From sequence record PV245934.1: DNA of 64,000 nucleotides. One strand, written 5' to 3'. Below are positions 15,217-34,507 of this stretch, piece by piece (the first letter of the stretch is position 1; each line of letters opens with the position of its first letter). The position numbers were made by a program, and so were the translations under genes. This stretch comes from Escherichia phage sutha. The notes under the pieces are model-generated. The model did not search any database, had not been told where the DNA came from, and was given only the letters and a program-made list of their open reading frames with translations.

Positions 15217-16185
15217 TTATTTCAGAAGAGTAACCTCAGCGATTTCTTGCCAACCGTTTTTGTCGGTCATAATAAAGTCAGCAAGATACAGAGCAGTACG
15301 CAGTGAAACATTGCGTAAACGATTAACATTGACTTTCATCCATGATAATGCTTTATAAGTTTCTTCATCAGAAAGACCGCGCTTTTGCATCATGTCGGTT
15401 GAAAGAATAACATCTTCAACCCTGACCATAATTTCTTCATTAGTGTGAACACCCAAATCCAAATAAACTGAGCGGGACACTAATGCTTGTAAATGTGGAG
15501 CAAGTTTAGTACCACGGTCTAATTCGCGGTCAATGTCAACGTTTGTGATAAAAACAATCGTTCCTTTAAATTCAAACTCACGCTCAATGCCTTTTTCTTC
15601 TAAGTAAGAAGATGCGGTGCTCCAGCAGACTTTACGGGTCTCTCCAGTGTCCAGAGCAGCTTTCAGAAGATTAAGAATGTCCATATCAGAGAAAACATCC
15701 ACATCATCAATCAAAAGGACAGAATTCTCTTCACGATTATTCCAAAGCTGTTCATAAAGACCGATACCAGAGATTTTACCATTAATGCTTTTATATTCAA
15801 TGTATCCATTATCATTTGCTTTATTCAAAGCTTTATCTAAAGAATACGTTTTACCAATACCCGCCGCACCAGAGATAATCAATGAACGAATATTTCCGTT
15901 AATAATACCATTCGTCATCATTCCCATAACATTAAATCTTTTATTAATGCGGGTTTTCATATCTTCATATGATTCTTTAACTTCTTCAACTTTTACACCA
16001 TCATATGAAATATCTGATTTGTAAACCCAAACACCGCGACGTTTACCGTCAATTTCAACAAAAACTTTACCATCTCCTTGTGCATCTACCGGAGCATTAT
16101 CTGGGAACCATTCGCCTAAGAGCTCAAAAGTTCCAGAGATTTCTTTACCGAAGTAGATACCCTTATTGATAGTTACAGTTTTCAT
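15217..16185 (-). CDS. AAA+/P-loop ATPase
   Basis: Walker A GAAGIGKT and Walker B-like LLIDDVD; track start is TTG, ATG at MKTV preferred. Confidence 0.55.
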   Translation of the reverse strand: MKTVTINKGIYFGKEISGTFELLGEWFPDNAPVDAQGDGKVFVEIDGKRRGVWVYKSDISYDGVKVEEVKESYEDMKTRINKRFNVMGMMTNGIINGNIRSLIISGAAGIGKTYSLDKALNKANDNGYIEYKSINGKISGIGLYEQLWNNREENSVLLIDDVDVFSDMDILNLLKAALDTGETRKVCWSTASSYLEEKGIEREFEFKGTIVFITNVDIDRELDRGTKLAPHLQALVSRSVYLDLGVHTNEEIMVRVEDVILSTDMMQKRGLSDEETYKALSWMKVNVNRLRNVSLRTALYLADFIMTDKNGWQEIAEVTLLK

Positions 16186-16221
16186 TTTATTCTCCAATTT
16201 TACATTTGTTTTGATAGGGTA

Positions 16222-16251
16222 ATAGTATCACACTACTACCCTGCTGTAAAC
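16222..16251 (-). promoter_or_regulatory. early promoter
   Basis: GTTTAC, 18 nt, TACTAT; 6-bp inverted repeat agggta/taccct flanks the -10. Confidence 0.5.
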
Positions 16252-16254
16252 AAT

Positions 16255-16518
16255 TTATTTTAATGTTTGCCAAATTTTTACTGCTTCGCGACGAGATACT
16301 TCTACGGCGCCAAGTTCTATAGCTTTTTGGCGTCGCCGAGCGTGTAAGTCATAATGTTTAATGCGTTTATCTTGAAACCAAGAACGTTTCATTCCTATTG
16401 CTTCTGCCATTTCGTGAAGCTCTTCAATATCTCCATCAGTGAACATATGACAATTTTTAGTTGGATGACCGCGAAGTTTCCATCCATGATTCATTAAAAC
16501 ATCTACGTAAACTGTCAT
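16255..16518 (-). CDS. hypothetical protein
   Basis: 87-aa basic protein. Confidence 0.45.
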   Translation of the reverse strand: MTVYVDVLMNHGWKLRGHPTKNCHMFTDGDIEELHEMAEAIGMKRSWFQDKRIKHYDLHARRRQKAIELGAVEVSRREAVKIWQTLK

Positions 16519-16700
16519 TGATTCTTCTCCAAATAAGTTTCGATAATTTTCTGGGCGAGATAAACCGCGTTATCTTCAGTTGCGTCTTCTAAGAAACTTT
16601 CAAAACACTCTGAAATTTCTTCTGTATCAATCAACTTTTTTACTTCAATTGGTGTAATTTTCATTTTGTTTTCCGTTTAAGTGTTTGTTTTGATAGTTGT

Positions 16701-16730
16701 ATAGTACCATAAAGCTTTATGCTTGTAAAC
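16701..16730 (-). promoter_or_regulatory. early promoter
   Basis: Same conserved block gatagttgtatagtacca ... gtaaac. Confidence 0.5.
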
Positions 16731-16750
16731 CATTTTGTGAAAAAATTTTG

Positions 16751-16778
16751 AAATAAAAAAAAGGAGCCCGAAGGCTCC
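16751..16778 (-). terminator. rho-independent terminator (minus strand)
   Basis: Hairpin ggagcc-cgaa-ggctcc followed by 8+ U; just downstream of the nucleotidyltransferase gene. Confidence 0.65.
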
Positions 16779-16781
16779 CTA

Positions 16782-17795
16782 TCATTTATAATAACTTCGG
16801 TGGTTTTCAAGATAAACCCTCTCAAGGAAGTCATCCCAGAAACCCATGTCTACTTTTTGCTGCATACCGTTCTTAGAAGCTTCAATGGATGCTGCTTCTA
16901 CTTGATCGACCACATCTTCCAAAAACTCTTGAACAGTTTTAAATGGATGCTTACCCAGCTTCACGTCGAGAATAAATGGAGCATCTTGGAGTGGATAAAC
17001 CAAGTCACCAGTTTTGTAAATTTCCAATAGTTGAAGTCCACCACGGCAGGCATGGCTCAGAGCTTTCCAGTCAATGCCTTCGTTGGCTTCGGCCTTACGA
17101 GCACGTTCACCGTATTCAGCATCTAATTTGTTCAGTGACTGCTTAAGCTCAATAAGAGAAAGCGTTGTCTGATATTTACGACCCAACACAGTGTAGAACG
17201 TTTGCGGGCCTGTTTTCTCATGATTATGGAACACCCATTCACAGAATTCGTTTTCTGGAAGACGATGCTTAATATCTTCAACTTTAGTACGACGCTGCTT
17301 AATGGAACCGTCTTCTTGGTAATCAACCCATTGCTCAGGGATTTGATTAACTACTTTCAATACATCGCGTAATGCAGCCAAACGAGAACCCTTGACACCG
17401 TATTTAGAAGCTTGCTTGCGGACATATCCTAAATAGGATTTCATGTTAGTCGTATAAAAACGAGAACGGTTGTCTTGAATAAACTTCCACACATCAGGCA
17501 AATCAGATTTAACCACTAGCTCAGGTGGAGTGTGGAGCATATCCAATGCTACAGTTTCACCATCTGCTGCTAATTTAAAGAAATATTTAAGACTGTATAG
17601 TTCATGGTCAATATCATCTTTAGTGTTTTTAGATGATGTGTTGTTAGTGTTTTTACTCATATGCTCTTTAACATTTCCGATAAGAATATCGCGAGCAGGA
17701 GGAACAAAGATTTCTTTAAAATCTACATCAGATTCTGGAGTAGAAGTTCCATAAAGATGACTACCAAAATAGCTTTTCATTACTGTTTTCATCAT
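16782..17795 (-). CDS. predicted nucleotidyltransferase (pol-beta superfamily)
   Basis: GSHLYGTSTPESDVDF matches the GS...DxD nucleotidyltransferase signature; hairpin terminator follows. Confidence 0.55.
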   Translation of the reverse strand: MMKTVMKSYFGSHLYGTSTPESDVDFKEIFVPPARDILIGNVKEHMSKNTNNTSSKNTKDDIDHELYSLKYFFKLAADGETVALDMLHTPPELVVKSDLPDVWKFIQDNRSRFYTTNMKSYLGYVRKQASKYGVKGSRLAALRDVLKVVNQIPEQWVDYQEDGSIKQRRTKVEDIKHRLPENEFCEWVFHNHEKTGPQTFYTVLGRKYQTTLSLIELKQSLNKLDAEYGERARKAEANEGIDWKALSHACRGGLQLLEIYKTGDLVYPLQDAPFILDVKLGKHPFKTVQEFLEDVVDQVEAASIEASKNGMQQKVDMGFWDDFLERVYLENHRSYYK

Positions 17796-18264: not shown

Positions 18265-18786
18265 TTATCCTTTCATTGAAGGTGTAACAGTTGTTAAATA
18301 CTTAATCATAGCTTCAGCTTCTGATTTTGATAATGAAATTTCTCCATTGTTTTGACGAATAGAAATAAAATCCGGATGACGGTCACCACCAGCTTTTAAA
18401 ACACACATATAAGTATCAGTTTCATCTTCAATATCTGAAATGATTGAAGCAGTTCCACATGAATGTGGTTTTTGATAAATCAATGCAGCTTTTCTTCCAC
18501 CGTTTGACTGCTCATAGGCTTTTAATACATCAAGCAAATCAGTTCTTTTATCAATAGCTAAGATGTTGTTTTCATCTTCAATGTTAAATCCTTCGGATAC
18601 TTCATAAAGTGTCACCCATAAATCGCCAATATCAATGACAGCATTCACCTTTCCATGATTTTCAAGAGCATTACAAATTTTCTTGATTTCGTCATAACTC
18701 ATTTTAATAATATCATCTCCTTGAATAAGGAAGATGTCATTTTTAAATTTAACACGAATTAAACCACTTTCACTTGAAATAAACAT
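18265..18786 (-). CDS. hypothetical protein (paralog of 18793..19347)
   Basis: Shared GFNIE(D/S)E and C-terminal (K/T)YL(T/D)(T/S)V(T/I)P(S/T)M motifs. Confidence 0.45.
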   Translation of the reverse strand: MFISSESGLIRVKFKNDIFLIQGDDIIKMSYDEIKKICNALENHGKVNAVIDIGDLWVTLYEVSEGFNIEDENNILAIDKRTDLLDVLKAYEQSNGGRKAALIYQKPHSCGTASIISDIEDETDTYMCVLKAGGDRHPDFISIRQNNGEISLSKSEAEAMIKYLTTVTPSMKG

Positions 18787-18792
18787 ATTTCC

Positions 18793-19347
18793 TCACTTTG
18801 AAATCATAGTTGGAATGACAGAATCAAGATAAGTCTTTAGCGCAATAGCTTCGTCTTTGGTAAATGTGACAATATGCGATCGAAAATCATCAATTTGGCG
18901 AATAGTTAAGACATCTCCCTCTTCATAGCATTTTGATACATTTAAAAGAGTTTCATCATTCTGATTGCAAGCGTTAGTAATAATAGCATTGCAATTTTTA
19001 AGCCATTTTAAACTACGTTTTCTTTCATTAGAATAATAAAAATATTTAATCTTAGCTATAAAACTATCCCAATGGATAACTGATAAGCATATTGACTCGC
19101 TTTCAATATTAAATCCTGGGCATGAAGAATAAAAATGAATTTTATGCTCATCATTAATGCTTACAATTTTATCAGTATAAGGATTTTCAATTTGGGTTAA
19201 ATGAATGATTTCACTAGGCGTAAAATATAGCATATCGTCTTCTTGTGTCAAACGATACATATTATTTACTTTTTCTATAGCCAATTCACCAAAAAGTGAA
19301 CTAACTTCTAATACTAATCGTTTCATATTAATCCTTTTTATTGGCAC
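18793..19347 (-). CDS. hypothetical protein (paralog of 18265..18786)
   Basis: See paralog motifs. Confidence 0.45.
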   Translation of the reverse strand: MPIKRINMKRLVLEVSSLFGELAIEKVNNMYRLTQEDDMLYFTPSEIIHLTQIENPYTDKIVSINDEHKIHFYSSCPGFNIESESICLSVIHWDSFIAKIKYFYYSNERKRSLKWLKNCNAIITNACNQNDETLLNVSKCYEEGDVLTIRQIDDFRSHIVTFTKDEAIALKTYLDSVIPTMISK

Positions 19348-20765: not shown

Positions 20766-20788
20766 AAAAAAGTCTCCCGAAGGAGACT
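20766..20788 (-). terminator. rho-independent terminator (minus strand)
   Basis: Hairpin agtctcc-cgaa-ggagact followed by U-run. Confidence 0.6.
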
Positions 20789-33554: not shown

Positions 33555-33631
33555 TGGCCAGGGTGAAAGGATTCTAACCTTTAACCTGCGGTTTAGAGGA
33601 CCGCTACTCTATACAATTGAGTTACACCCCG
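33555..33631 (-). tRNA. tRNA-Arg (anticodon UCU)
   Basis: Manual cloverleaf: acceptor CGGGGTG/CACCCTG, T-arm AAAGG-TTAGAAT-CCTTT, anticodon loop CCUCUAA, encoded CCA. Confidence 0.75.
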
Positions 33632-33757
33632 TAATTAGTTCACAGCAATACCTACTCCAACAATCAAGATGTCTTCACACGAAATTAAGAGAAGAGTGAT
33701 CAGTTCAACCCCTATAACCGCGTCAAGTAGATATTAATGTGACAATTGTCACAAATT

Positions 33758-33832
33758 TGGCGGACGTGATAGGATTCGAACCTATAACCAATCGCTTAAC
33801 AGGCGATCGCTCTGCCATTGAGCTACACATCC
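33758..33832 (-). tRNA. tRNA-Asn (anticodon GUU)
   Basis: Clean cloverleaf: D-arm GCTC-AATGGCA-GAGC, anticodon arm ATCGC-CUGUUAA-GCGAT, T-arm ATAGG-TTCGAAT-CCTAT, encoded CCA. Confidence 0.75.
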
Positions 33833-33836
33833 AAAT

Positions 33837-33923
33837 TGGTGGGGAGTGGTGGAGTCGAACCACCCGAGTCGCAATGACAATGGATTTACAGTCCACACCG
33901 CTACCTCTACGGGATAACTCCCC
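33837..33923 (-). tRNA. tRNA-Tyr (anticodon GUA), long variable arm
   Basis: 87 nt; anticodon loop CUGUAAA; T-arm GTGG-TTCGACT-CCAC; acceptor GGGGAGT/ACTCCCC; encoded CCA. Confidence 0.7.
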
Positions 33924-33932
33924 TAATTAATT

Positions 33933-34009
33933 TGGTGACCCAGACCAGATTTGAACTGATAACCTTTCCCTTATGAGGGGACTGCTGCTAACCATTGAGC
34001 TACAGGGCC
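33933..34009 (-). tRNA. tRNA with CAU anticodon (Met or Ile2)
   Basis: Anticodon loop CUCAUAA; T-arm ATCAG-TTCAAAT-CTGGT; imperfect acceptor and D stems; encoded CCA. Confidence 0.6.
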
Positions 34010-34010
34010 T

Positions 34011-34086
34011 TGGTGCTGATTGACGGAATCGAACCGCCGACGTCCTCATTACAAGTGAGGTGCTCTACCTACTGAGCTAAATCAGC
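34011..34086 (-). tRNA. tRNA-Thr (anticodon UGU)
   Basis: Acceptor GCTGATT/AATCAGC, D-arm GCTC-AGTAGGTA-GAGC, anticodon loop CUUGUAA, T-arm GGCGG-TTCGATT-CCGTC, CCA. Confidence 0.8.
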
Positions 34087-34091
34087 AAAAC

Positions 34092-34181
34092 TGGCGGAGG
34101 CGATAGGATTTGAACCTATGAGTCGCCGGAGCGACTGCCGGTTTTCAAGACCGGTGCATTAAACCACTCTGCCACGCCTCC
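34092..34181 (-). tRNA. tRNA-Ser (anticodon UGA), long variable arm
   Basis: 90 nt; anticodon arm CCGGT-CUUGAAA-ACCGG; T-arm ATAGG-TTCAAAT-CCTAT; CCA. Confidence 0.8.
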
Positions 34182-34183
34182 AG

Positions 34184-34257
34184 TCTCCGCGGCAGGATTT
34201 GAACCTGCGACATTCTGCTCCCAAAGCAGACGCTCTACCAAACTGAGCTACACGGAG
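34184..34257 (-). tRNA. tRNA-Pro (anticodon UGG)
   Basis: Anticodon arm TCTGC-UUUGGGA-GCAGA; T-arm GCAGG-TTCAAAT-CCTGC; CCA not encoded. Confidence 0.8.
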
Positions 34258-34267
34258 TAAATTAAAT

Positions 34268-34341
<74 letters not shown>

Positions 34342-34346
34342 AAATT

Positions 34347-34433
34347 TGGTGCGAGAAGTGGGACTCGAACCCACAAGGAAATCATTCCGCAGCATTTTAA
34401 GTGCTGTGCCTTTACCAATTTGACCATTCTCGC
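34347..34433 (-). tRNA. tRNA-Leu (anticodon UAA), long variable arm
   Basis: 87 nt; anticodon arm CAGCA-CUUAAAA-TGCTG; T-arm GTGGG-TTCGAGT-CCCAC; CCA. Confidence 0.8.
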
Positions 34434-34434
34434 G

Positions 34435-34507
34435 CTGGGAATAAAGGACTCGAACCTTTGCATCTAGCAGTCAAAGTGCTATGCCTTACCAACTTGGCTA
34501 ATTCCCA
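34435..34507 (-). tRNA. tRNA-Gln (anticodon UUG)
   Basis: Acceptor TGGGAAT/ATTCCCA, anticodon arm TAGCA-CUUUGAC-TGCTA, T-arm AAAGG-TTCGAGT-CCTTT; CCA not encoded. Confidence 0.8.

Follow-up and report, generated by a model that had tools for sequence, protein, structure and literature searches.

Escherichia phage sutha carries an ortholog of the already named T4 gene nrdC.11, and the product of this gene almost certainly belongs to the RlaP family of pol-beta-type nucleotidyltransferases (NTases). The function of the protein, which a preliminary description of the same DNA had given as unknown, can probably be narrowed to RNA-end repair. Specifically, it is reasonably likely that NrdC.11 fills in nucleotides on RNA 3' ends between healing by Pnk and sealing by Rnl1, the mechanism being one that we infer.

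The gene, the family and the hypothesis about its role have all been published previously, and a known candidate has been re-identified here rather than newly revealed. What the present analysis adds is the RNA-repair context and the full-length conservation of the T4-type clade.

The NTase gene and its transcription unit

The DNA analysed (the window) is a stretch of 64,000 nucleotides from sequence record PV245934.1. The open reading frame (ORF) of the NTase was found in it exactly as the preliminary description had given it. The gene and its associated signals are as follows.

16782..17795, minus strand: NTase coding sequence of 337 aa with an ATG start, from the ORF list; T4 NrdC.11 ortholog and RlaP-family pol-beta nucleotidyltransferase
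16751..16780, minus strand: intrinsic terminator with an 8-bp G+C-rich stem and a UUCG loop (16761-16780), then a U tract (16751-16760), from sequence scan and folding
16701..16729, minus strand: candidate sigma-70/T4-early-like promoter, TTTACA-17-TACTAT with TG, a pattern match from a consensus scan

In the ORF translation, the N-terminus of the protein is MMKTVMKSYFGSHLYGTSTPESDVDF. The TGA stop of the preceding ORF overlaps the first ATG of the NTase gene in the sequence ATGATGA. Most database annotations of the orthologs give 336 residues, the length that would result if translation began at the second ATG (17792). Judging from its matches to Pfam, PHROG, phage records and protein clusters, the ORF is no chance feature. 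Other candidate ORFs were rejected: the plus-strand ORFs within 16782-17795 are all of 76 aa or fewer and without support, and a minus-strand ORF of 57 aa (16661..16834) crosses the terminator and is probably spurious.

The terminator hairpin begins 1 nt past the TGA stop codon. It consists of the stem AGGGAGCC, the loop UUCG and GGCUCCUU at 16780..16761 on the minus strand, and is followed by UUUUUUAUUU. The folding energy of the region is -15.7 kcal/mol (z = -2.9 relative to shuffles), and a terminator is annotated at the same site in phage vB_EcoM_G9062 (NC_054920.1). The earlier claim that the gene has its own terminator is thus borne out as a sequence feature. The promoter-like site at 16729..16701, just beyond the terminator, would be the start of the next transcription unit. 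In the consensus scan, the closest good upstream sigma-70-like sites on the minus strand lie at about 19250 and 19940. No MotA-box middle promoter was found upstream of the NTase gene, and the total number of MotA-box matches was at chance level. Because the upstream sites are early-type and no MotA box precedes the gene, it is probably the last of a unit that is read from an upstream early-type promoter and ends at its own terminator. Another hairpin resembling an intrinsic terminator, built like that behind the NTase gene with its UUCG loop and U tract, lies at 20771-20788 on the minus strand.

The neighbours of the NTase gene encode a small membrane protein, a DUF4031 protein and a P-loop ATPase, with no PADLOC match. 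The DUF4031 protein (87 aa; 16255-16518, minus strand; PF13223, E 1.5e-21) lies just downstream of the NTase terminator, and its gene is preceded by an ORF of 49 aa from a PHROG family without known function. The P-loop ATPase (326 aa; 15217-16197, minus strand) is assigned to phrog_1250 and has sub-threshold matches to nSTAND3, AAA_16 and AAA_14; its gene has its own TTTACA-17-TACTAT promoter-like site at 16250..16222. This ATPase was considered as a partner of the NTase and rejected, the same-sized neighbour in a distant phage-like locus being unrelated and no cluster of such ATPases recurring among the 85 loci analysed. Upstream of the NTase gene, tandem paralogs at 18265-18786 and 18793-19347 (minus strand) both match T4_y05I_N and T4_y05I_C ('putative transcription factor'). 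At 33555-34507 (minus strand), the window contains 10 tRNA genes, for Arg, Asn, Tyr, Met/Ile(cat), Thr, Ser, Pro, Gly, Leu and Gln. The 3' CCA is encoded in 8 of them and absent from the genes for Pro(tgg) and Gln(ttg), for which a CCA-adding activity is therefore needed.

Orthology and distribution in phages

The DNA of the window is 97% identical to many Tequatrovirus genomes. The NTase protein has 98.8% identity with T4 NrdC.11 across all 337 residues and 100% identity with a protein of Shigella phage SF2-1. By these sequence comparisons, the source phage is a Tequatrovirus and the gene is the nrdC.11 ortholog, since both the high full-length identity and the kept genomic position that mark the orthologous group were found. 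T4 NrdC.11 itself, a 38.9-kDa protein of the nrdC-mobD region, shares genomic position and terminator with the NTase of the window and differs from it in only a few residues. The window and NC_054920.1 likewise have the flanking genes and the terminator in common. The setting differs from that in T4 in other respects: the nearby small ORFs are unlike those of some T-even relatives, and no mobD homing-endonuclease gene was found between the NTase gene of the window and tk.

The names given to the gene product in databases include NrdC.11, 'putative 38.9 kDa protein' and 'nucleotidyltransferase'. Many GenBank and UniRef entries, however, call the NTase 'thioredoxin', and one calls it 'putative HNH homing endonuclease'. 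These labels are systematic misannotations, apparently taken from the neighbouring nrdC and mobD genes.

Homologs of the NTase are present in 1517 phage records. In a library of 1.84 billion proteins, 3421 representatives of 50%-identity clusters match at E <= 1e-3, and the best 150 of these are mostly of about 320 aa and match over nearly their full length. Among Escherichia phage records, the NTase gene is found in 608, compared with 634 for baseplate gp6, 635 for Pnk and 636 for Rnl1. Nearly all T-even-like phages therefore have the gene, despite the variability of its surroundings, and the earlier placement of it in a variable early region describes the neighbourhood and not the gene itself. 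T4-like cyanophages are abundant among the gp6 matches (374 Synechococcus records) and absent from the top genera for NrdC.11, Pnk and Rnl1. This pattern suggests that the three proteins occur together in T-even-like phages and are missing together from cyanomyoviruses. However, their similar counts by phage genus may reflect mere shared ancestry.

RlaP family membership and conserved residues

The assignment to the RlaP family, which we regard as nearly beyond doubt, is based on a match to PF10127 with 43.8 bits, above the gathering cut-off of 23 (E = 3.3e-11). The protein also matches phrog_388, 'nucleotidyltransferase', with E = 7e-137. Conservation was examined in an alignment of 123 sequences, comprising T4-like phages and a set of about 30-37% identity, and all 123 match PF10127. 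The parts of the protein are listed below.

17391..17777, minus strand: N-terminal NTase region, residues 7-135, to which the match to PF10127 is confined (profile positions 23-142 of 249)
17721..17765, minus strand: catalytic motif G11-S12-x10-D23-V-D25 (hG[GS] ... DhDh), invariant in 123 of 123 aligned sequences
17607..17609, minus strand: D63, probable third metal-binding carboxylate (I62-D63-H64), invariant in the alignment and in model strand 62-68
17382..17405, minus strand: clade signature K131-Y-G-V-K135-G-S-R138, a basic loop after helix 119-131, with K131, Y132, G133, K135, G136 and R138 invariant or nearly so
17160..17342, minus strand: middle, mostly beta-stranded segment, residues 152-212, of low sequence conservation and present clade-wide, with K/R at position 206
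16785..17159, minus strand: C-terminal helical region, residues 213-337, with terminal helix 317-336
17043-17072, minus strand: signature D242-W-K-A-L-S-H248-A-C-R251, within the C-terminal helical region

The motif FGSHLYGTSTPESDVDF, residues 10-26 of the 337-aa protein, had been read as a pol-beta-type nucleotidyltransferase signature, and this reading proved correct. The hG[GS] element of the pol-beta superfamily (Pfam clan CL0260), followed 9-13 residues on by [DE]h[DE]h, is present as F10-G11-S12 and, after ten residues, D23-V-D25-F. No active-site residue is missing on alignment: G11-S12, D23, D25 and D63 are invariant in the 123 sequences. When bacterial homologs are included in the alignment, the G11-S12...D23/D25 motif is kept in at least 75 of 79 sequences, with S12 replaced by A in 10, and position 63 is D in 75 and E in 3 of the 79. 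Standard pol-beta NTase topology makes D63 the probable third metal-binding carboxylate. Additional invariant residues of the 123-sequence alignment are K27, K56, N57, Y228, G229, R231 and D242-W-K-A-x-x-H248-x-x-R251. The K131-R138 signature, used as a search pattern, retrieved 140 genomic relatives.

The match to PF10127 extends over profile positions 23-142 of 249 and does not reach the C-terminal helical half of the profile. The same partial coverage is seen in 10 bacterial homologs of the clade, and in the middle segment, 152-212, the median number of aligned residues among bacterial homologs is 51. The remaining 200 or so residues, including this beta-rich segment, appear to be clade-specific, and the substrates selected may not be those of the Pseudomonas enzymes. 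Searches of NCBIfam and PADLOC with the NTase protein gave no match, and the head domain of CCA enzymes and poly(A) polymerases, PF01743, gave none at E <= 0.1.

Predicted structure

The AlphaFold2 model built from the 123-sequence alignment has a pLDDT of 87.6 and a pTM of 0.75. It begins with the alpha/beta NTase core, which has strand 3-9, helix 12-15 and strands 24-31 and 62-68, continues with helices at 119-151 and a beta-rich part at about 155-210 (strands 158-160, 167-169, 185-192, 196-203 and 206-209), and finishes in a helical C-terminus. The best solved structural neighbours of the model are NTase-fold proteins only, and the unrelated fold that by the preliminary description would have refuted the NTase reading did not emerge. 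Within a library of viral structures, the model has its good matches among proteins from other phages and from giant viruses that are named 'nucleotidyltransferases'. The model supports an NTase alpha/beta fold with a helical substrate domain and without a close solved structure in the library searched. The aminoglycoside- and lincosamide-type enzymes KNTase, ANT(4'), ANT(3'')(9) and LinB have the same two-part plan as the model, a pol-beta NTase domain and then a helical bundle. No HEPN Rx4-6H nuclease motif was seen by eye in the C-terminal bundle.

The nearest structural neighbour is HalB of the Hailong system (PDB 9dbh/9dbj). This protein differs from the NTase in length (217 versus 337 aa), is 15% identical to it and has no detectable sequence relationship with it. 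Searches of PDB sequences with the protein and with the 123-sequence profile gave no match at E <= 10, and no HalA-like partner is encoded. The product of HalB is reportedly long oligodeoxyadenylate, and the HalA channel is its partner.

RNA-repair genes beside bacterial homologs

The RlaPs whose activity has been characterized fall into a different sequence cluster from T4 NrdC.11, and the RNA-repair ties of the T4-type clade itself were therefore examined. Two signatures of the clade, KYG[IV]KGSR[ML] and DWKAxSHA, were searched for in 185,579 species genomes, and 80 loci were recovered. The neighbouring ORFs were clustered, and recurrent clusters were named by Pfam.

Pnkp (AAA_33 kinase, Metallophos and PNKP_ligase): 9 loci, 5 of which have it on the same strand with its end 0-44 nt upstream
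Hen1 (Hen1_L and methyltransferase): 6 loci
RtcB (RtcB): 6 loci
Ro60 (TROVE): 3 loci
CCA-type enzyme (PolyA_pol and HD): 4 loci
phosphohydrolase (HD_4): 4 loci

Pnkp, Hen1, RtcB, Ro60 or a CCA-type enzyme occurs within 5 kb in 18 of the 80 loci, and such a neighbour occurs in 14 of the 49 loci that have at least 4 kb on both sides. About 70% of the bacterial loci have no recognisable RNA-repair neighbour. The RNA-repair-linked homologs align with the NTase protein over its full length at 32-41% identity and keep the catalytic and signature residues. The Pnkp/Hen1-linked and RtcB-linked bacterial members of the clade (loci L044, L047, L062, L067, L075, L021, L043 and others) are found in operons with healing, sealing and 2'-O-methylating enzymes. 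In contrast, the phage gene stands alone behind unrelated small genes. No RNA-repair gene lies beside phage nrdC.11: in a phage genome that is 96.7% identical at the locus, nrdC.11 is at 54 kb and Rnl2, Pnk and Rnl1 are at 106.6, 134.0 and 136.6 kb, or some 50-80 kb away.

Other arrangements were observed among the relatives. In several prophage-like or phage contigs (L003/L004, L021, L033 and L089; L005, L073, L008 and L009), the gene directly beside that of the NTase, often overlapping it or only a few bases away, encodes either an HD_4 phosphohydrolase or a small P-loop kinase of the AAA_33 type. Such a pairing with the NTase looks like a minimal, ligase-free 'heal and fill' pair for end repair. 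In the bacterial MAG contigs of L014, L015 and L021 (also L018 and L080), a protein of 516 aa combining a UDG-superfamily domain with a ResIII/DEAD helicase is encoded 0.5-2.8 kb after the NTase, and this trio recurs.

A probable role in RNA 3'-end repair

RNA repair was first discovered in T4, as a two-enzyme pathway in which Pnk and Rnl1 counter the anticodon nuclease PrrC. The T4 RNA ligases are 5'-phosphate ligases and need both a 3'-OH and a 5'-phosphate. The anticodon nuclease RloC removes the wobble nucleotide, leaving a lesion that 'could defy reversal' by T4 Pnk and Rnl1 (PMC2610378). The idea that RlaP restores nucleotides was already proposed by Burroughs and Aravind in 2016, as cited in a later preprint (PMC12776372). 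Additionally, a comparison of jumbo phages found that the distribution of RlaP mirrors that of RNA ligases and predicted that it restores nucleotides lost to RloC-like nucleases (PMC7824862).

The preprint, of December 2025, describes the RlaPs of P. fluorescens and P. aeruginosa, whose genes lie between rtcB and rtcA (PMC12776372). Among E. coli macromolecules, PfRlaP and PaRlaP labelled RNA only, leaving proteins unlabelled, and they required a 3'-OH (PMC12776372). They add 1-2 NMPs to this end with little base specificity, accept dATP, prefer Mn2+ or Co2+ and are inactive on DNA (PMC12776372). On a mimic of a cleaved tRNA, both clearly favour the anticodon-break end over the acceptor end, and treatment with RlaP before ligation partly restores the aminoacylation of a tRNA that is missing one nucleotide of the anticodon loop (PMC12776372). 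T4 NrdC.11 was placed in the RlaP family, in cluster 5 of the sequence network, the activity data being those of PfRlaP and PaRlaP only (PMC12776372).

Pseudomonas RlaP (PF10127, SSN cluster 1a) shares with the NTase of the window the GS...DxD...D arrangement (PMC12776372). Its plan, with an N-terminal NTase, a C-terminal helical domain and a final helix, matches the model of the window protein when likened by the description in the preprint, and relatives of both proteins occur in RNA-repair operons. Despite these similarities, T4 NrdC.11 stands apart in its own cluster, and T4-type proteins, at about 320-337 aa compared with a 249-position profile, have the beta-rich middle in addition. The genomic settings also differ, with Pseudomonas rlaP inside rtcB-rlaP-rtcA and phage nrdC.11 unlinked to ligase genes.

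In the proposed mechanism, D23, D25 and D63 would hold two divalent metals, probably Mn2+, and NrdC.11 would move one or two NMPs from NTPs, without a template, to the 3'-OH of a broken RNA. Pnk would first take off the 2',3'-cyclic phosphate and phosphorylate the 5' end; NrdC.11 would then replace the nucleotide lost at the break; and Rnl1, as a 5'-phosphate ligase that needs a 3'-OH, would finally seal the nick. The outcome would be the rescue of tRNAs hit by base-trimming anticodon nucleases of the RloC type, which would be beyond the reach of Pnk and Rnl1 alone. Because of the ends that they need, the T4 ligases fit the product of RlaP and suit its 3'-OH better than does the RtcB linked to the Pseudomonas enzymes. 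RtcB does not fit this product, a difficulty raised by the preprint itself (PMC12776372). The segment from nrdC.11 to mobD.3 was lost in a viable genome-reduced T4, and this dispensability in the laboratory fits an accessory role in counter-defence (PMC9825161). Against a repair role, non-templated addition with low NTP specificity would give the right base in only some of the molecules, a point made by the authors of the preprint (PMC12776372).

Other substrates have to be weighed against this mechanism. NrdC.11 might act on the acceptor ends of host or phage tRNAs, rebuilding damaged or missing 3' nucleotides such as part of the CCA. PfRlaP and PaRlaP do label full-length tRNAs, and indeed any RNA with a 3'-OH, yet their preference for the anticodon-break end and their little NTP specificity speak against this use (PMC12776372). 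The homolog adjoins a PolyA_pol and HD enzyme of the CCA type in four bacterial loci, but a site beside a CCA enzyme argues for a different, complementary job, and the NTase has no match to the PF01743 head domain. The two tRNA genes without an encoded CCA (Pro and Gln) among the ten of the window would provide substrates, but T4 tRNA maturation relies on the host CCA enzyme. Action on acceptor ends is thus considered rather unlikely. The protein could also tail RNA outside repair, marking or blocking host RNAs or phage transcripts in host shut-off or RNA turnover. Such a role would agree with the finding that, in total E. coli RNA, RlaPs use each of the four NTPs to label species of the size of rRNA and tRNA (PMC12776372). 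The clade-specific C-terminal 200 residues leave the substrate open, and the apparently early-type promoters upstream, with no MotA-box match, would also be compatible. However, the recurrent neighbours of the clade are healing and sealing enzymes (Pnkp, Hen1 and RtcB) rather than nucleases or decay factors, and an addition of 1-2 nt is a poor decay signal, which makes tailing unlikely.

The structural resemblance to HalB raises the question of whether NrdC.11 could be an oligonucleotide synthase or nucleotide-signal enzyme, making short oligo(deoxy)nucleotides that would counter a host defence, for instance by holding a channel of the Hailong type shut. The likeness is at the level of the general NTase fold, with no PDB sequence match and no match to a PADLOC defence family, and the genomic context points to RNA repair. 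In addition, RlaPs act by lengthening RNA ends that are already there and go no further than the second nucleotide (PMC12776372). We consider a HalB-like enzyme most improbable, and the link to nucleotide signalling suggested in the preliminary description gained no support beyond generic fold resemblance. It is very improbable, too, that the 200 or so clade-specific residues direct the enzyme to another product, such as HalB-like short oligo(deoxy)nucleotides serving as a decoy against oligonucleotide-gated defences. Nucleotidylylation of a host protein, toxin or metabolite, in the manner of ANT/Lnu, MNT or DrrA/GlnE enzymes, is suggested by structural resemblances, but these are at superfamily level, the identities being 8-15%. 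Proteins of E. coli were left unlabelled by PfRlaP and PaRlaP (PMC12776372), no HEPN partner is adjacent, and the neighbours of the clade are RNA-repair enzymes; this activity is extremely unlikely.

Implications for T-even-like phages

If the role of NrdC.11 in filling RNA 3' ends is true, T4 would possess a third, nucleotide-restoring enzyme of RNA repair that is present in nearly all T-even-like phages, and tRNA repair by these phages would be extended to breaks that entail the loss of a base. Whether a phage can undo base removal of the RloC type is a question that has stood since 2008 (PMC2610378), and nrdC.11 would then answer it.
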